Assembly (NCBI GenBank): GCA_030614005.1
Contig: JAUWKS010000020.1
Location: forward strand, 1 to 32,000
Source of the DNA: Candidatus Heimdallarchaeota archaeon
GTDB lineage: Archaea; Asgardarchaeota; Heimdallarchaeia; JABLTI01
Direction: 5' to 3'
Length of the DNA stretch: 32,000 nucleotides
The first letter of the stretch is position 1, and the number at the start of each line of letters is the position of its first letter. Below are positions 24,106 through 31,982 of this stretch, one piece after another. The translations under genes and the position numbers were made by a program. Below the pieces are notes generated by a model, which was given only the letters and a program-made list of their open reading frames with translations, ran no database searches and was not told the origin of the DNA.

Positions 24106-25974
24106 TTATTCGTCGTCTCTTTCTACCCATGAGAACTTATTTTGTAATGTTTTCGAGTAATAGTTTCTCCAATCATAGTCTACTTCTTTTCCCCAAGCAT
24201 GATATATTCTTGGATCAATATACGACTTCAAGCTCGTTCCTAAATTCCACACTTTAGTTTTCTTAGAAATTCGTTCTTGTGTTTCGATTTTCTTATATGC
24301 TTCTTTTGCTTTGTAGACACGTTCCTTAGCTGTGCCTAAGCTATTTTTTCCTCTAGCGATTTGACTTTGAGCAATTTCTATGCGCTTTTTCGCAGTGCCA
24401 ACTCGTTTCCTCTGAGTTTGTACTTTCTTCTTTTGTTTCGCACAAGCTTTAGTGAGTTTCACTTTTTCTTTTGAATCTTGTTCGTTGTTAGAAAGATCTT
24501 CTAGCTCAAGAAAATCACCTTTTGTTTGTTCGAGAATTTTTTGCTGCGCTTTTTCTTGTTTTCGTCTTTCCTTTAGATTCTTCTTAAGTTCTTCAAGACG
24601 TTCTTCTCTACCACTTTGGTTTAGTTTTGCTTTTTCAATGCGCTCACTTGATTTAATCTTTCGTTCTCTAAATCGTTGAATCCTATTTTCCCAATTCTTA
24701 GGTGCTTGTTTCATATGAGTACACACAACTGCTGCCTCGCGATTAGCCATCGTAGCAGCTTCTTTCTTCTTGTACTCTGGGTCATCTGCTGAAGTGTCAG
24801 ATTCTTCTAAATGAGCTGAGACGATATTTGTTGCATGAAACGTTCTAAATACTTTTGCCGTAAGATCAGGCACAATATTACTGAAGAAATCATTAACCTG
24901 AGTACTACCAATTTTCGAGAAAATCTGAGGTTTATCCTTTCCACTCTTTTCTGCTTCATCTATTAAAAATTGCAATTCTTTTATAATATATAATGGGAAA
25001 GTAGTATCTTTATTCCATTCCACAGAATCTTTTCCAAGAAAATTGAAATTTACCTCCTCACCATCAATTGTAACATGTTCAGGTCTTAAAGTGGTAGCAC
25101 CTACGGTATCTGCTTCATCTTCATCCTTTTCGTCACCAACTCTCAGAATTAGTTGATCAATGATGTAACAGGCAAGAGCAATTTTTCTTGTCCGAGGATT
25201 ATCACTTTTAATACCTTTATCAATTTCTAAACGAATTTTCTCTAATTGTCCCGCAACTTTCCTAGCCTTGTTGAATTTTTCGATTTCTCTATCTTGTTTT
25301 ATGGGTGTATTATCTGATAGCCAGACGTATTTTGTTTTTTTGGAAAGTTTATCTTCCCATTTCGCAACCCAAAGACATTCTGGTTCCCAAACGATTTCTT
25401 TCCATTTCTCTTTCCAATTCTCTTTCTTCTGTTCTTCAGATAACTCACTTATATTGAGAACAATATCTTTTGAAGTAGGACCTTCTTTCCATTTACCTCG
25501 CATTGGATGTTCTCCTCGACCCATAAATATACTACTAGGTTCAGCAGTCCAAGCTCCAATTTCCACTTTCATTTCGTCTAACAAGGTTGTGCCATAATAT
25601 TCTTTTAGCTCTTCTCGAACAACCTTTCGGTCTTCTCTTGCTTGCTTTTTTTGTTCTTTAGTCAAACTTTCTTTCTCAGCTCTTACTGATTCAATGTGTT
25701 CAATTACCTCTGAAAAATCAATGTCATCATCTGTGAGATTGTCATATCCTAGTTTTCTACTGAAATCGGCAAAGAAATTTTTACAAAAAATAGTATCATC
25801 TACATAGACTGTAGAAAGTTTTCTAACCCAAGCAATAGCCATTTGTTCTTGCATTGGATCGAGTTCTATCCTAGTATCTTTTACTCCAATTGTTAATCCA
25901 AGATACTTAATTTCTGAAATCATAATTCCATTGTGAGTTAGTTTTTTCATTTCTACCAAGGCACTGAACCTCAT
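24106..25974 (-). CDS. top1: DNA topoisomerase IB (eukaryote-type)
   Basis: EP.SIFMGRGEHP.RGKWK, LRVGDEKD, ADTVGATTLR.EH, FLGKDS, TAKVFRTF, ANR..A..C.H and LGTSLKSY (catalytic Tyr) followed by IDPRI. The true start may be MKKLTHNG at 25950. Confidence 0.96.
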   Translation of the reverse strand: MRFSALVEMKKLTHNGIMISEIKYLGLTIGVKDTRIELDPMQEQMAIAWVRKLSTVYVDDTIFCKNFFADFSRKLGYDNLTDDDIDFSEVIEHIESVRAEKESLTKEQKKQAREDRKVVREELKEYYGTTLLDEMKVEIGAWTAEPSSIFMGRGEHPMRGKWKEGPTSKDIVLNISELSEEQKKENWKEKWKEIVWEPECLWVAKWEDKLSKKTKYVWLSDNTPIKQDREIEKFNKARKVAGQLEKIRLEIDKGIKSDNPRTRKIALACYIIDQLILRVGDEKDEDEADTVGATTLRPEHVTIDGEEVNFNFLGKDSVEWNKDTTFPLYIIKELQFLIDEAEKSGKDKPQIFSKIGSTQVNDFFSNIVPDLTAKVFRTFHATNIVSAHLEESDTSADDPEYKKKEAATMANREAAVVCTHMKQAPKNWENRIQRFRERKIKSSERIEKAKLNQSGREERLEELKKNLKERRKQEKAQQKILEQTKGDFLELEDLSNNEQDSKEKVKLTKACAKQKKKVQTQRKRVGTAKKRIEIAQSQIARGKNSLGTAKERVYKAKEAYKKIETQERISKKTKVWNLGTSLKSYIDPRIYHAWGKEVDYDWRNYYSKTLQNKFSWVERDDE

Positions 25975-26055
25975 ATTTCTTCATTCGAGACCATTTTTAA
26001 AAGCTATCAATAGTTCACTTTAGATAAAAAAAGAATGATTAGATAAAAGTTGGTA

Positions 26056-26760
26056 TTATCTTACTTCACAAACTTCAAAATTTGCTTTAATTTTTTCACA
26101 AGCATCTTCAAGAATACCTAAGCGAAATGGTTGAAGCTTTTCAAATTCCTTATCTAAACACTTCAAGGGTCTGAATTGTTGAATATACAATCGCTTTGCT
26201 CCTTTGATCATTTCCGCAATAATTGGAATATCATGTTCAGGATCGATTATTGTAGGAACAACTGTTGTTCTAAATTCATAATCAATATCAGAATCAATTA
26301 TGATTTTAATTGATTTCAGAATATTTTTGATGTTCACTTTCTTGCCAGCAGCGAGGTGATATTTCTCTGGAATTGCTTTAACATCCATAGCAATATAATC
26401 AAGCAATTTGTCATCAATAAGTTTCTGAATTACATCAGGATGATTACCATTGGTGTCAATTTTTGTTTTTAACCCCATTCCTTTGATAATTTTCAGAAAA
26501 TCAGGCAATCGCTTACTGAGAGAAGGTTCTCCTCCAGTAATTGACACTCCATCCAGCCATTTGCTCTTTGATCTCTTTTCAATTTCTGCAAGAATTTCAT
26601 TCGTATCAAAACTTTTTACAGCATCTAAAGGAATTAAATCCGGATTGTGACAGAATGGACATCGAAAATCACATCCTGCAAGAAAGATACTATCTACAAT
26701 TAGACCTGACCACTCAATAATTGAACCCTGTTTATACCCCTTAATTTCAAGTCCTACCAA
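26056..26760 (-). CDS. nrdG: Anaerobic ribonucleotide reductase activating enzyme (radical SAM)
   Basis: FLAGCDFRCPFCHNP (CxxxCxxC), GVSITGGEP, KIDTNG, MDVKA, YEFRTT, QQFRP; operon context. Confidence 0.93.
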   Translation of the reverse strand: MVGLEIKGYKQGSIIEWSGLIVDSIFLAGCDFRCPFCHNPDLIPLDAVKSFDTNEILAEIEKRSKSKWLDGVSITGGEPSLSKRLPDFLKIIKGMGLKTKIDTNGNHPDVIQKLIDDKLLDYIAMDVKAIPEKYHLAAGKKVNIKNILKSIKIIIDSDIDYEFRTTVVPTIIDPEHDIPIIAEMIKGAKRLYIQQFRPLKCLDKEFEKLQPFRLGILEDACEKIKANFEVCEVR

Positions 26761-26779
26761 TTATGTATTCAACTCGATT

Positions 26780-27040
26780 TTATTTTGCTTGAAGTTCTTT
26801 TTGAACTTGCTCTATTGGAGGTACTTCTCCTCTCCAAGCTTTAACTTCACTATCGGATTCATCGACAATAATCAAAGAAGGTGTTGAAAGAACATCAAAA
26901 TAAACTGATTCTGATAAACCTTCTTCATCATCTAAATTGAACCACTCAACAACAGTACCTTTTTCTTCAAGTTTTTTTGCCATAGCTTTTGCTGGAGGGC
27001 AATTTGGACAATCTGCTTTTGTAAATACTTTTAATTTCAT
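26780..27040 (-). CDS. Glutaredoxin/NrdH-like thioredoxin-fold protein
   Basis: KLKVFTKADCPNCPPAK (CxxC), V.STPSLII with the cis-Pro motif. Confidence 0.9.
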   Translation of the reverse strand: MKLKVFTKADCPNCPPAKAMAKKLEEKGTVVEWFNLDDEEGLSESVYFDVLSTPSLIIVDESDSEVKAWRGEVPPIEQVQKELQAK

Positions 27041-27152
27041 TATCTATCTATCCTCAAATTTTTTTCTGTCTGTTTTACTATTAATCTAAAAAATAAATAT
27101 AAAAAGATAAAGGAAGAGAAGAGGCGAACGAGGTTCGACCTGATCATGCACC

Positions 27153-27386
27153 CTACACGTCATCAGACCAATAATTGCCTTTTTGTCTTCTCTTTAACTC
27201 TGATTTCTTAGAGTTGTTCCAGTTATCAATTATACTAAAGTATCCTACTACCCTGCTAATACCGTAAACATTGTCGCTGTTACAGTATGGGCAATTAGGA
27301 GTAGAACACGTTTCACCTGCATGTTCTATATTTTGTTCTGTTGTTACTTCGGTTATTTTTGTTATAGTTGTTTTTGCCTGTTCCAT
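27153..27386 (-). CDS. Stand-alone glycyl-radical domain of class III RNR (NrdD C-terminal part)
   Basis: CPYCNSDNVYGISRVVGYFS..NWN.SKKSELK.R matches the NrdD CPxC...RVxGY C-terminus. It has its own GAGG RBS. Confidence 0.9.
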   Translation of the reverse strand: MEQAKTTITKITEVTTEQNIEHAGETCSTPNCPYCNSDNVYGISRVVGYFSIIDNWNNSKKSELKRRQKGNYWSDDV

Positions 27387-27454
27387 ACAATTTTTCCTCG
27401 ATAGTTTATTTTTCTTTTTACGCCATTTTTCGATTTGTTTTCTTTTTCAGCCCA

Positions 27455-29875
27455 CTATTGACCTTGTACAGAAGAACTTGTTGATCTGCCAAAGCCCCTA
27501 CTAACTTGTCCACAATCTCTACAGACTGTAAACTCTGGTGAAAACACTATCTGTGCGCTCTGGGTATTGTCCCATGTTTTCTTAACCAGATTCATTATTG
27601 ATTCCGCCGAGGGTTTTTGCTCGCCGACGAATATGTGTGTGATAGAACCGCTTTCAATGAGGGTATTGAATTTCCCTTGTTTTGAAATTCTATCAATAAT
27701 ATCAATAGGTGCATCAGCTGCGAAGTGTGCACTATTGGTATAGTAAATTGATCCTTCGTCAATATCACCCTTGACATAATGAATACTGTCAGGATATTCC
27801 TTAAGATCAGTTCTCGCGAATTTAAAAGGAGCACTTTCTCCTGGAGTTTCTTCAAGAGTAACAGTTAGACCATGTAGTTTTTGGAGAGCTTTTGCTTTTA
27901 GGTTCATTCCAGCAATAATCTTTAGGCCTAGTTTGTAGGCTTTTTCGCTGTCATGTTGTTCTTCATCAATAAGATATTGAACACATTCATTTAATCCTAT
28001 AACGCCTATAATGTAAGTTGCTTTTTCCAAATCAACATAAGGTCTACCATCTTCAGCAATCATACCAATTTGCCAAAGGGTGCCATTTTCTTGAGTCATG
28101 AGTTGAGTAATGAATTCCTTCTTCTCAAGATGAGCTTCCATTGCTAAATCCATTGCTCGTCTAATTTCTTCAATTGTTTTCTTTACGTTACCTTTTCCGG
28201 CTCGATACGCTGCTTGTGGTAAATTAATGCTCACATTTTGGAACCCACAATAACGCATGCTTTCAGGATGTTCAATCATATACATGTCAGTGATTGTTGT
28301 TTTTAATCGACAGCACATTGAAAGATTGATTTCATCGCGATCAAATATGAAATAAGTTGAACCATTTTCAGAGGATATTTTACATGCCAGTTCCAACAAT
28401 TTATACTGTTCAGGATCATCAAAGGAACTTTGATCAATATGTAAATCAAATTTTGGAAATGGGAAGACTTTCGATTCAGAATCTCCTTCTAACCAAACTT
28501 CCATTAATGCTTTAGCAAATAATTGTGTTTCTTTTTCATACTCGCCATAATTTTTTCCAGTATATTTACCACCAGGGCCAATTGCGGGTATGTTTTTGAG
28601 ATATCTTGGAATGCCTAAATGAATATTAAAATCTACAAAAAGGGTTTGTCCCCCTCTTGAGAACGCATTTTGACTGCAAGAATAAATCAATCGCTGTGCT
28701 TCTTGTTTTATTTGTTTATATGGGACACCAACAAAATAAGGGGCATAAAAGATATTCAGATAAGCTAATCCTAAAGCACCGGCATAATATGCTTGCATTG
28801 AAGCTAAGAAGGTATTAAGATGTCCAGTAAGAGTATCTGCATGATTTGCTGGGTTTGAAACGGTTGAGAGATTTAACAAGTTCAATCCATATTTTTTGAT
28901 ATATTCTAAGCTATGAGCAGAGCAATACACCCTGACTGGGAAACCCAAATCATGCAGGTAAATCATTCCTTTTCTGTGTGCATTTGCTACTTCCTTGGAG
29001 AAGAGCTCTTGAAGAGCAAATTTTTTCAATATTGCTTCTGCAATAGCTAAGTTCACCGCCTCTGGATTATTGGCGACTACGTTACTATTTTCTTTGCTTT
29101 TTGAAAGTATAAGTTGTTTAAGATCGAATGTGGGTATACCAATAGTTTTCTGTTGAACCAATTTAGTATTATACCCTCGAGTAAATAATTCATTATCAAC
29201 CAAACTTCTGATAAAATCAACTGATATTACACCTATGCCAGATGCAAATATCTTTCTTTCAACTTCTATGGAAACAGAATCAGCATCTGCACGATTTAAT
29301 CCTGCTTCTTTAACCAAAGCGGCAGTAATTTTTGTTCGGTCCCAACCAGAAATTTCCTCTCGAGTATCAGCTGATACCATTAACAGAAGTTCAGTAGAAT
29401 CACGACTTTTCACATCTACTTCCTTTACTACTTTTAATTTCTCCAACTCACGTTCAAATGAAGCGATATCTGTGAATCGTCTATAAACTGAAGCATAACG
29501 AATATAAGCAACTTCATCGAGTCCTCGGAGTTTTTCCATAACTAATTCTCCTACGACACTAGCTTCAATTTCCAATTCTTCATTTTTTCTTAATTCACTT
29601 TCAATTTCATCTATAACGTCTTCAATTTCCTCAGAAGAAATAGGTCTTTTTTCGCAGGCTTTTACGATACCTTTTTTGACTTTCTCACGATCAAATGGTT
29701 CCCTACGTTTATCCTTCTTTACAATAGTAAGCTTCACTTGTTCTATTCGTTCATAAGTTGAAAATCGCTTTTTACATTGAAGACATTCTCTTCTTCGTCT
29801 ATTTGCTTTCATGTCTTCTGACGCTCGTTTATCAACGACTCGAGTATTTGGCGATTGACAGTAAGGGCATTTCAT
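27455..29875 (-). CDS. nrdD: NrdR-NrdD fusion: NrdR repressor (aa 1-147), second ATP cone, class III RNR barrel; lacks the glycyl-radical domain
   Basis: MKCPYC...RRRRECLQCKKRFSTYE...VAYIRYASVY (NrdR); LHDL...YC, SRGGQTLF, FPFP, SMCCRL, IGVIGLNE, ETPGES, YYTNS, ESGSITH (NrdD). Ends after CRDCG with no RxxGY. Confidence 0.95.
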   Translation of the reverse strand: MKCPYCQSPNTRVVDKRASEDMKANRRRRECLQCKKRFSTYERIEQVKLTIVKKDKRREPFDREKVKKGIVKACEKRPISSEEIEDVIDEIESELRKNEELEIEASVVGELVMEKLRGLDEVAYIRYASVYRRFTDIASFERELEKLKVVKEVDVKSRDSTELLLMVSADTREEISGWDRTKITAALVKEAGLNRADADSVSIEVERKIFASGIGVISVDFIRSLVDNELFTRGYNTKLVQQKTIGIPTFDLKQLILSKSKENSNVVANNPEAVNLAIAEAILKKFALQELFSKEVANAHRKGMIYLHDLGFPVRVYCSAHSLEYIKKYGLNLLNLSTVSNPANHADTLTGHLNTFLASMQAYYAGALGLAYLNIFYAPYFVGVPYKQIKQEAQRLIYSCSQNAFSRGGQTLFVDFNIHLGIPRYLKNIPAIGPGGKYTGKNYGEYEKETQLFAKALMEVWLEGDSESKVFPFPKFDLHIDQSSFDDPEQYKLLELACKISSENGSTYFIFDRDEINLSMCCRLKTTITDMYMIEHPESMRYCGFQNVSINLPQAAYRAGKGNVKKTIEEIRRAMDLAMEAHLEKKEFITQLMTQENGTLWQIGMIAEDGRPYVDLEKATYIIGVIGLNECVQYLIDEEQHDSEKAYKLGLKIIAGMNLKAKALQKLHGLTVTLEETPGESAPFKFARTDLKEYPDSIHYVKGDIDEGSIYYTNSAHFAADAPIDIIDRISKQGKFNTLIESGSITHIFVGEQKPSAESIMNLVKKTWDNTQSAQIVFSPEFTVCRDCGQVSRGFGRSTSSSVQGQ

Positions 29876-30004
29876 TATTCTAGTTCACTCGTTTTTTCTT
29901 AGGCACTATTTTCCTGCGCCGATTTTTATTTTGGCGTTTTATGTCGGTTCTAGGAGACGGTCTCACCTCTAAGCGAGTTTGTTTCCTTTACAGCCCACCC
30001 TATA

Positions 30005-30020
30005 CCACCACATCTGGTGG
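30005..30020. promoter_or_regulatory. NrdR box (gene-proximal)
   Basis: CCACCACATCTGGTGG fits the 16-bp palindromic consensus acaCwAtATaTwGtgt at the key C4, A6, A8, T9, T11 and G13 positions. Confidence 0.8.
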
Positions 30021-30035
30021 TTTGTGGTCCCTCAA

Positions 30036-30051
30036 ACACAACATATTGTAT
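30036..30051. promoter_or_regulatory. NrdR box (promoter-proximal)
   Basis: ACACAACATATTGTAT, 14/16 match to the consensus and exactly 31 bp from the other box. Confidence 0.85.
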
Positions 30052-30076
30052 ATGTTATTTGTTTCTGAACGCTTTG

Positions 30077-30084
30077 TATTTAAA
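30077..30084 (-). promoter_or_regulatory. Candidate archaeal TATA box of the nrd operon
   Basis: TTTAAATA on the minus strand, about 25 bp upstream of the first NrdR box. The AT-rich context makes the call weak. Confidence 0.35.
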
Positions 30085-30215
30085 TGTTATGTGAATGAGA
30101 ATTTTTATAAGAATAAATAATCATCTATAAAAATCAAAAAATAGTTCACCAAATTTTTTTTCACTCGGATAACTTGTAAAACAAAAAAAGAGAAAATGTC
30201 CTATAAATATTTCAT

Positions 30216-31982
30216 CTACAGAACAGTTACGGATTTGGCCAAGTTTCTAGGAAAATCAGGATCATTTCCGCGAAGTATAGAAAGATGATAAGCAATTAAC
30301 TGCAGAATAGGAATTATAACAATTGGTTCAAGAGCAACTTTTGCTAGAGGGATATAATGATCAAAGATGTCTAGCTTTTCAGAGGAAATGCCGATTATAA
30401 TTCCACCACGAGCTTTGATCTGCATAATGTTATTGATCATATCATCTTTAGTTTCATCATTTGGAACGAGTGCAATGCATGATACACCAGGTTCAATAAG
30501 TGCAAGAGTATGATGTTTTAATTCACCACCTGCCAGAGCATCAGCGTGAATATAGGCAATTTCCTTAATTTTAAGTTCGCCTTCCATTGCAACTGGAAAA
30601 GCAACTCCACGTCCAATTAGAAATAAATTTTGTTTATTCAGAACCTCTTTAGATAACTCCTTGATAAAATCAGATTGTTTCATTATAATCTCAAATTGAA
30701 AAATTACTTCATTGAGGTGTTCTTTACCTTCTGCAAGTTGATTGTTTAAAGCATATGCTAACATCACCAAAATAAGTACTTGAGAGGTGAAAGCTTTCGT
30801 TGAAGCAACAGCAATTTCAGGGCCAGCGTTTAAAGTAAGAAATTGTTCGGACTCACGCATAATAGTACTACCCATAACATTTACTAAAGAAACAACTTTT
30901 GCACCTTTGCTTTTGGCAATTTTAATTCCTTCCAAAACATCTGCAGTTTCACCAGATTGACTAATGGCGAAAAGAACTGTTTCGTTATCAAACAAATTCT
31001 GATAGGTTTTAAATTCAGACCCTAAAATAGGCATGAAGTTTCGATGGCAAAGTTTAGCAAAATAAATCGATGCTATGAGACAAGCACGATAAGAAGTTCC
31101 AGAACCGAGAAAATAGACATTTTTTGCTTGGGTCAACAAGGTAACAAGTTCAGCTAATTTTGCTGGATCTTGATCCAATGCTTGCTTTGAAACCTCAGCT
31201 TCTTCAAATATTTCCTTTAGCATGAAATGTGGATAACCATCTTTTGTGGCTTGCTCTGCAGTCCAGTCGATTGTAGATATTTCCTTCTTAATTTCTTTAC
31301 CTGCTGCTAAATCATAAATTGTGCATTCATCATTTAGGATTGCTAATTCATAGTTCTCTAAAATAATTGCTTTATTTGTATATTCTAAGAAGGAAGTCAT
31401 ATCAGATGAAGCGAAGAATTCATTTTCACCAACGCCAATAATTAGTGGAGAATCCTTTCTAAAACAATAAATATCACCTGATTTTTTACTTAACAATAAG
31501 AAAGTGAAAGCTCCTTTTGCTTGTTCAGAAGTTTCCTTTATTGCTTTGATTATATCTTTGGCTTGTTTCATATTTTCTTCTATTAAATGAACTAAGACTT
31601 CAGTATCTGTTGTTGATGTAAAATGGTGTCCTTTTTCTACTAATTGTCTTTTCAATTCAACATAATTTTCTAAAATGCCATTGTGTACAAGAGCATATTC
31701 ACCATCACAAGATGTAAAAGGATGGGCATTTTCCATCGTTACATTGCCATGAGTTGCCCAACGAGTATGAGCAATGCCTACTTTTCCTGTTAAAGATAAG
31801 AAATCAACTTTAGCATTTACTCGCTCAATTCGTCCTGTTCCTTTTCTAACAACTATAATATTATTTCCATTTAAAGAGGCCATACCACAGGAGTCATAAC
31901 CACGATATTCTAATCGTTTCAATGAAGCCAGTAATATTGGTGAGGCCTTTTGCTTTCCTGTATAACCGATTATTCCGCACAT
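30216..31982 (-). CDS. glmS: Glutamine-fructose-6-phosphate transaminase (isomerizing)
   Basis: MCGIIG, LEYRGYDSCG, HTRWATHG, VHNGI, SQSGETAD, VASTKAFTSQ, ELKH, PRNLAKSVTV. Confidence 0.98.
   Translation of the reverse strand: MCGIIGYTGKQKASPILLASLKRLEYRGYDSCGMASLNGNNIIVVRKGTGRIERVNAKVDFLSLTGKVGIAHTRWATHGNVTMENAHPFTSCDGEYALVHNGILENYVELKRQLVEKGHHFTSTTDTEVLVHLIEENMKQAKDIIKAIKETSEQAKGAFTFLLLSKKSGDIYCFRKDSPLIIGVGENEFFASSDMTSFLEYTNKAIILENYELAILNDECTIYDLAAGKEIKKEISTIDWTAEQATKDGYPHFMLKEIFEEAEVSKQALDQDPAKLAELVTLLTQAKNVYFLGSGTSYRACLIASIYFAKLCHRNFMPILGSEFKTYQNLFDNETVLFAISQSGETADVLEGIKIAKSKGAKVVSLVNVMGSTIMRESEQFLTLNAGPEIAVASTKAFTSQVLILVMLAYALNNQLAEGKEHLNEVIFQFEIIMKQSDFIKELSKEVLNKQNLFLIGRGVAFPVAMEGELKIKEIAYIHADALAGGELKHHTLALIEPGVSCIALVPNDETKDDMINNIMQIKARGGIIIGISSEKLDIFDHYIPLAKVALEPIVIIPILQLIAYHLSILRGNDPDFPRNLAKSVTVL

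Follow-up and report, generated by a model that had tools for sequence, protein, structure and literature searches.

Introduction

Control of ribonucleotide reductase (RNR) is a textbook case of layered regulation, in which allosteric control is exerted via an ATP-cone and transcriptional control via NrdR. Autoregulated operons are common for NrdR. Here, we analyse a stretch of 32,000 nucleotides from Candidatus Heimdallarchaeota archaeon (contig JAUWKS010000020.1 of assembly GCA_030614005.1, positions 1 to 32,000; the window), which contains the genes of a class III RNR of unusual architecture. The catalytic chain, NrdD, begins with a complete NrdR module, while the glycyl-radical domain is encoded as a separate small protein. 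Both RNR control layers appear to be merged in one polypeptide with one sensor domain.

Among the closest described systems are the stand-alone NrdR and single-chain NrdD proteins. A cryo-EM study of S. coelicolor NrdR assigned phosphate contacts to R12, R26-29 and R37, and sequence specificity to D15 and R17 (PMC9110341). Papers up to 2025 treat NrdR as rare or absent in archaea and leave a fusion unmentioned. Neither an NrdR-NrdD fusion nor a split NrdD appears in two surveys of insertions and extensions in RNRs, and no published description of either was found in the full-text literature, subscription-only papers not being covered. An earlier sequence-only reading of this DNA knew of no description of the combination, and the searchable full-text literature agrees with it. 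As regards the detachable radical domain, a 2026 review states that no spare parts are known except those of formate lyases, and raises the question of further ones (PMC13450708).

We find the architecture to be real, conserved and apparently undescribed in print. On the basis of sequence and structural models, the locus probably encodes an autoregulated, two-subunit class III RNR, the only RNR found in the genome. The core of the sequence-only reading is upheld at the level of sequence, in that a complete NrdR module, conserved box pairs and a separately encoded glycyl-radical subunit are all present.

An NrdR module at the N-terminus of NrdD

The nrd genes run along the minus strand in the order 806-aa fusion, 77-aa radical protein, redoxin and NrdG, followed by topoisomerase IB (TopIB). 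Profile matches and open reading frames (ORFs) confirm the presence, position and strand of all the elements that the sequence-only reading had listed. The N-terminal 42 residues of the large subunit match Pfam Zn_ribbon_NrdR (PF22811, 63 bits against a 27-bit cut-off), residues 50-136 match the Pfam ATP-cone (89 bits over two stretches) and residues 262-791 match NRDD (PF13597, 380 bits), the latter over model positions 1-517 of 562 only. The protein passes two NCBIfam equivalog models, NrdR TIGR00244 (196 versus 125 bits, positions 1-147 of 147) and NrdD TIGR02487 (347 versus 326 bits), and residues 1-147 align with solved NrdR chains over the full length (E 1e-39). Rather than the free-standing format of NrdR (~140-220 residues), we find an in-frame fusion to NrdD within a single 806-aa ORF.

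Residues R12, D15, R17, R26-29 and R37 carry the same numbering in the 806-aa protein as in S. coelicolor NrdR. Alignment of 18 diverse fusions (57-84% identity) shows R17, R27-29 and R37 to be invariant and D15 nearly invariant, with R12 and R26 at least close to invariance. Also invariant in this set are the four Zn-ribbon cysteines together with K53 and K65 of the cone, where F61 is invariant or nearly so.

The source genome is a metagenome-assembled genome of 126 contigs (3.62 Mb, 90% estimated completeness), and such an origin could in principle give rise to a fusion or split by misassembly, or to a pseudogene. However, contigs of independent runs from three studies run across the split (27386-27455) as well as the point where NrdR joins NrdD (near 29435), with zero indels, and the architecture is common to more than 100 homologues from other assemblies. 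An artefact or pseudogene is thus extremely improbable, which settles the question that the sequence-only reading had raised for both fusion and split. The stretch is contained in marine-sediment and cold-seep metagenomes, no RNA data set being listed among those that include it, and its nearest named records are Candidatus Heimdallarchaeota metagenome-assembled genomes with 82-85% identity.

No second NrdR Zn ribbon was found in the source genome, the fused copy being the only one, and no separate NrdR Zn ribbon was found in five DPANN genomes that carry the fusion. Neither a class I nor a class II RNR was found in the source genome at its estimated completeness. The nrd operon therefore appears to be the only source of deoxynucleoside triphosphates (dNTPs) in this genome, and the enzyme is predicted to be essential as the sole RNR found.

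The bacterial relatives allow the position of the NrdR module to be understood. In these, the first domain of NrdD is a canonical ATP-cone (>100 bits); a second, degenerate cone comes next, and then the core. The archaeal fusion is collinear with this unfused NrdD from residue 51 on, which indicates that the NrdR cone replaces the canonical first cone. What the sequence-only reading took for a second ATP-cone is the degenerate cone, which is also present in the unfused bacterial relatives; in the fusion it scores 22 bits, below the cut-off, and has no KRDG-like motif. As NrdR displaced the canonical first cone, the fusion probably contains one working nucleotide sensor as opposed to two, and this single sensor would serve both the Zn ribbon and the enzyme.

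A full-length AlphaFold2 model, computed with the 18-sequence alignment, has a mean predicted local distance difference test score (pLDDT) of 62 and a predicted TM-score (pTM) of 0.44, with the linker (147-177) at a pLDDT of about 26. The model is too poor for placing the NrdR module relative to the barrel. The very low confidence of the linker, together with the existence in the same clade of close relatives with a separate nrdR gene, would be in line with a fusion that is merely a co-expression device. NrdR would then be freed by proteolysis of the linker, or NrdD made from an internal start, and the free NrdR would act as it does in bacteria. This is distinctly unlikely: the 18 aligned fusions share no conserved internal Met near the junction, the frame is open in more than 100 sequences, and there is no sign of a processing site.

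Paired NrdR boxes at the nrd promoter

Windows were scored against the NrdR consensus ACACWATATATWGTGT, and the pair of palindromes upstream of the fusion gene has the top score among eight above-threshold pairs in the 3.62 Mb genome. Box 1 starts ~25 nt past a TATA-like box, and would therefore lie over the expected archaeal transcription start. Box 2 is a perfect CCACCA/TGGTGG palindrome, and retains the core positions C4, A6, A8, T9, T11 and G13. Bacterial nrdR-nrdD loci of the same data set gave several 15-16/16 matches, paired ~31 bp apart. Of 22 archaeal fusion loci, 19 have a pair offset by 31-33 bp whose score exceeds that of at least 96% of mononucleotide shuffles (p <= 0.04), and the mean best-pair score is 23.4 at this offset compared with 20.1-21.6 at other spacings. 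A comparison of five Heimdall promoters reveals three conserved blocks, the TATA box, box 1 and box 2, with the rest of the leader varying in length and sequence. This variation rules out a conserved riboswitch.

A riboswitch or structured leader was also rejected on other grounds, as the folding gain over shuffles is modest (z -2.5) and no Rfam match was obtained; within the GC-richer stretch between the boxes and the ATG, the strongest hairpin is box 2 itself. Low-depth contigs of one metagenome run contain single-base variants at 30006 and 30025, inside and just beside box 2 respectively. Further upstream, in the glmS-nrdD intergenic region beyond the nrd promoter, a weak match to a C/D-box snoRNA-like Rfam family (20 bits, E about 1; 30144-30220, minus strand) is probably due to chance.

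Taken with the conserved Zn ribbon, the box pairs make self-repression by the fused enzyme the best reading of the sequence, and a likely one. The same module could, in contrast, be an allosteric or oligomerisation domain only, which replaces the lost first cone and does not bind DNA, the palindromes being relics or the sites of another factor. Indeed, NrdR occupies the exact place of the activity-site cone of the bacterial relatives, and class III RNR activity is controlled by the cone (PMC11226230; PMC12662201). Such a role would leave unexplained why distant fusions conserve every Zn-ribbon residue for DNA contact and specificity and why box pairs of canonical spacing are kept at the promoters of fusion genes. 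No other NrdR was found in the genomes checked, and we consider a purely allosteric function improbable.

A split Zn site and a separate radical subunit

The ORF of the small subunit lies 68 nt downstream of the large ORF in another frame and covers the last 53 NRDD positions. The large chain provides the first Zn cysteine pair, C785/C788 (CRDC), and ends 18 residues later. The small chain provides the second pair, C32/C35 (CPYC), as well as the radical glycine G48 (codon 27245-27243), following an N-terminal tail that is hydrophilic and variable. The large subunit lacks a glycyl-radical domain having a four-Cys Zn site on the same chain; the remainder of this domain is found on the 77-aa protein. 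Between the Cys pairs of the two NrdD pieces there are ~45 additional residues. Two ways of rejoining the pieces were considered and rejected. A simple frameshift or read-through conflicts with the different frames, the 68 nt gap, these additional residues and the agreement of independent contigs, while a split intein is at odds with the end of the large chain, as 18 residues past the first CxxC are too few for an N-intein.

The 77-aa protein was modelled in complex with Zn and the core (residues 240-806), and the model reached an ipSAE of 0.90 in three of three runs compared with 0.18 for the best control. In the calibration of this procedure, 51 of 78 solved complexes attained this mark, as did 2 of 108 mismatched pairs. 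At least 77% of contacts are common to the runs, with a partner pLDDT of at least 65. The model places C785/C788 against C32/C35, with finger-loop residues 522-523 contacting the small chain, whose residues 1-28 remain outside the interface. Because single-chain NrdD structures have been solved, this result reports likeness to NrdD as opposed to proof of binding. Sequence and model together make a functional two-chain enzyme very likely.

The source genome contains three mini-protein genes of this type, and all 11 of 11 genomes of the Heimdall family have 2-3 copies. The mini-proteins match NRDD model positions 508-561; their last 45 residues are near-identical among the paralogues and their N-terminal tails differ. 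One extra copy adjoins an HD-domain gene, and the other has a Lys-rich 253-aa gene on one side and two Roadblock/LC7 genes on the other. The neighbourhood of the C110 copy is the same in four other genomes of the family, that of the C103 copy in one only. A box scan of the source genome found no NrdR boxes at the extra mini-protein genes. The genome also encodes two full-length glycyl-radical enzymes resembling pyruvate formate-lyase (PFL), at C75:13381-16109 and C1:18056-20837 (ORFs of 792 and 842 aa), each gene adjoined by an activase-like radical-SAM gene. It is unlikely that the extra mini-proteins serve these PFL-like enzymes, as the ORFs concerned are full-length and the mini-proteins are NrdD-type.

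A repair role of the paralogues, as spare parts for an oxygen-damaged enzyme, is plausible from the sequences, if somewhat short of probable. The alternative is a neutral fission, after which the small chain stays Zn-bound for the life of the enzyme and the extra paralogues are condition-specific isoforms instead of repair parts. DPANN genomes checked have a single mini-protein gene with the same split, unsplit members (L018, L028) are nested in the split clade, and the split class II NrdJa/NrdJb sets a precedent for fission without a repair role. However, the three paralogues are under strong purifying selection family-wide, with at least one extra copy in a conserved chromosomal context, and they are NrdD-type with half a Zn site and not PFL-type, despite the two full-length PFL-like enzymes in the genome. 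We therefore regard neutral fission as a serious but rather unlikely explanation.

Distribution and origin of the fusion and split

Most of the 120 homologues listed carry the same three Pfam domains. Among the matches listed, most three-domain homologues stop just past the first CxxC and have no glycyl motif, and in ~30 of greater length (870-903 aa) a variable linker leads on to the second CxxC and radical loop. The majority of archaeal homologues share the split. In the nearest bacterial relatives, which include Planctomycetota (among them Brocadia), Omnitrophota and Clostridia, nrdR is a separate gene of 150 aa directly upstream of an unsplit nrdD. In some Planctomycetota, NrdD-like genes beside nrdR (L053, L056, L061, L072, L086) have a CxxC...RVVGY motif that is unrecognisable in the locus or weakly matched.

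A quick tree of the core places all archaeal forms in one clade (SH-aLRT 99), which also holds one Candidate Phyla Radiation (CPR) sequence and one unclassified 'bacterium' sequence, with the Heimdall group nested among DPANN sequences. The archaeal clade comprises 16 fused and split loci, 2 fused and unsplit loci (the unsplit members named above) and 5 loci with a separate nrdR and a split enzyme (L027, L030, L036, L044, L050). Since both fused-unsplit and unfused-split forms exist, fusion and split are separable events. The sequence-only reading had viewed fusion, split and boxes as one system whose elements ought to co-occur elsewhere. They do occur together in at least 16 further archaeal loci, fusion, split and box pairs of 31-33 bp offset being found in Heimdall and DPANN archaea, so that the combination recurs; as a unit it is not obligatory, given the fused-unsplit and unfused-split forms.

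Within 300 sampled Asgard genomes, the fusion was found only in the Heimdall family of the source genome (8 of 10 genomes), and the other genomes sampled have ordinary NrdD ORFs of ~715 aa. This restriction to a single family suggests lateral acquisition.

Two variations on the fused chain were observed among homologues. In the uncultured archaeon LFW-252_1, the fused NrdD has an in-frame TGA at the first finger-loop cysteine (A-TGA-C-R versus M-C-C-R; L022:4558-4560, contig CABMEV010000003.1), which resembles a selenocysteine position, and the frame is intact beyond it. A tRNA-Sec was not found above the Rfam threshold in the 1.2 Mb LFW-252_1 genome (best 35.7 versus 47 bits). Some other fused NrdR-NrdD homologues (P0102, P0113, P0115; 1323-1383 aa) have intein and LAGLIDADG domains (PF14528, PF14890) inside the core.

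Redoxin, activase and neighbouring genes

The order NrdD, radical domain, redoxin and NrdG is kept in the archaeal and in many bacterial relatives, and the nrdG gene is the only above-cut-off TIGR02495 copy in the genome. The lineage with the MCCR double-cysteine finger loop has been judged compatible with thioredoxin or formate. The 112-nt gap between the radical-subunit and redoxin genes (27041-27152, minus strand) contains T-runs and a TATA-like TTTTATAT, and on this account redoxin and nrdG may have a promoter of their own.

The four related Heimdall loci have TopIB after nrdG, but they equally keep GlmS at the opposite end, and the DPANN loci have neither. Between nrdG and TopIB there are seven consecutive T and a TTTTAAAAA element, and the box scan found no NrdR box ahead of TopIB. 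The inclusion of TopIB as a part of the system in the sequence-only reading is thus unsupported, with the adjacency limited to close Heimdall loci, a T-run and TATA-like element intervening, and an NrdR box lacking. All features are listed in Table 1.

Table 1 Features of the nrd locus and of the unlinked mini-protein genes, with positions in the window unless a contig is given.
Feature	Coordinates	Strand	Basis and remarks
TATA-like box TTTAAATA of the nrd promoter	30076..30083	-	Aligns with conserved TTTATATA in four related Heimdall loci; putative promoter role
NrdR box 1, 16-bp palindrome	30036..30051	.	14/16 consensus matches; kept in Heimdall promoter alignment
NrdR box 2, CCACCA-GATG-TGGTGG	30005..30020	.	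10/16 consensus matches; 31 bp offset from box 1
Large subunit, 806 aa	27455..29875	-	Pfam, NCBIfam and solved-chain alignments. NrdR Zn ribbon aa 1-42; NrdR-type ATP-cone aa 50-147; low-confidence linker 148-177; degenerate cone ~177-235; NrdD core 260-792; MCCR finger loop 520-523
Small subunit, 77 aa	27153..27386	-	NRDD model positions 509-561; CPYC; radical loop SRVVGYF
Redoxin, 86 aa, thioredoxin fold, CPNC	26780..27040	-	Domain match, conserved gene order; candidate reductant
NrdG, radical-SAM activase	26056..26760	-	TIGR02495, 193 versus 131 bits
TopIB, eukaryote-type	24106..25974	-	Probably a separate transcription unit; conserved neighbour only
Extra mini-protein gene	C103:22543-22719	-	NrdD-type glycyl-radical mini-protein
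Extra mini-protein gene	C110:63714-63914	+	NrdD-type glycyl-radical mini-protein

Discussion

The features of this locus can be combined into a putative mechanism. A rise of dATP relative to ATP would lead the NrdR modules of two enzyme dimers to assemble in the manner of free NrdR tetramers. The assembled Zn ribbons could then bind the two boxes, which closely follow the TATA box and lie over the expected transcription start, and so block transcription of the genes for NrdD, the radical subunit, the redoxin and NrdG. The cone may turn the enzyme off as well. In the active enzyme, the sequence and model support a 77-aa protein that would contribute the second Zn Cys pair and a glycine loop inserted beside the MCCR finger loop, with NrdG predicted to install the radical on the small chain. 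The operon redoxin probably re-reduces the active site, although the MCCR motif is compatible with formate as the reductant too.

Oxygen cleaves glycyl-radical chains at the glycine. In the split enzyme, cleavage at this point would mean that only the small chain is lost, and that it is replaceable. The two further paralogues, which are without NrdR boxes, would constitute a reserve that is constitutive or differently regulated, in effect a spare-part system for RNR.

Several observations count against parts of this mechanism. The consensus used for box scoring was validated by positive controls from the same data set only, the bacterial nrdR-nrdD loci, and the shuffle test preserved mononucleotide composition alone. 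Box 2 agrees with the consensus at only 10 of 16 positions, and single boxes of box 1 quality occur 7 times in the genome. The bulky NrdD dimer might not permit a DNA-binding NrdR tetramer, a point on which the poor full-length model gives little guidance. With respect to spare parts, the extra paralogues would not be co-regulated with the enzyme, as they lack NrdR boxes, and the single copy in split DPANN genomes means that the split alone does not imply spare parts.

A bolder version of this mechanism, which is possible but doubtful, has one NrdR-type cone with two outputs, switching catalysis off and making the enzyme the repressor of its own operon, such that the DNA-bound species is the dATP-inhibited enzyme. 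The detachable radical subunit and its unlinked paralogues would then be the first spare-part system outside PFL. Irrespective of this, the fusion offers a natural system in which to study the coupling of nucleotide binding to two different outputs by one ATP-cone. The split radical subunit and conserved paralogues bear on the question, posed in the 2026 review, of spare parts beyond PFL, and an answer would help to explain how strict anaerobes of marine sediments keep their only dNTP source working through oxygen exposure. In contrast to the view of NrdR as rare or absent in archaea held in recent papers, NrdR-type regulation appears widespread in DPANN and present in one Asgard family.

Comparison with known systems

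Compared with stand-alone NrdR (S. coelicolor PDB 7P37/7P3F; 9FVR, 9FXK, 9FZF; TIGR00244), the N-terminal module is collinear over residues 1-147 and agrees in its Zn ribbon, its RRRR motif, D15/R17 and the cone residues. The two also share an arrangement of 16-bp palindromic boxes in pairs, ~31 bp apart and over the promoter. Unlike the stand-alone protein (~150 aa), the module here forms the N-terminus of the enzyme that it presumably regulates, and the promoter is archaeal, with a TATA box, as opposed to sigma-70.

With single-chain NrdD and NrdG (phage T4 1H78, T. maritima 4COI/4U3E, P. copri 8P23), the system has in common the barrel, MCCR finger loop, Zn site, RVVGY loop and adjacent NrdG. 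By sequence, the nrdR-nrdD operons of Planctomycetota and Omnitrophota come closest to it, and in relatives a redoxin gene is likewise found between nrdD and nrdG. It differs from single-chain NrdD in that a second polypeptide bears the radical domain along with half of the Zn site, and in having NrdR in place of the canonical first cone.

The small subunit resembles GrcA/YfiD, the spare part of PFL, in being a small protein with an unstructured N-terminal tail and a glycyl-radical loop, in having extra copies away from the enzyme operon, and in the rationale of a radical-bearing chain cleaved by oxygen. In contrast to GrcA/YfiD, the mini-proteins are of the NrdD and not the PFL type, their host enzyme itself lacks a radical domain, and rescue is a candidate function; one copy is moreover an obligatory subunit and not only a repair part. 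The split class II RNR NrdJa/NrdJb of P. aeruginosa provides the other parallel, as its catalytic chain is also divided near the C-terminus to give a small piece with a Zn-finger module. It belongs to a different class, however, and its split-off piece delivers reducing equivalents and not the radical, with a Zn site that is not shared between the chains.

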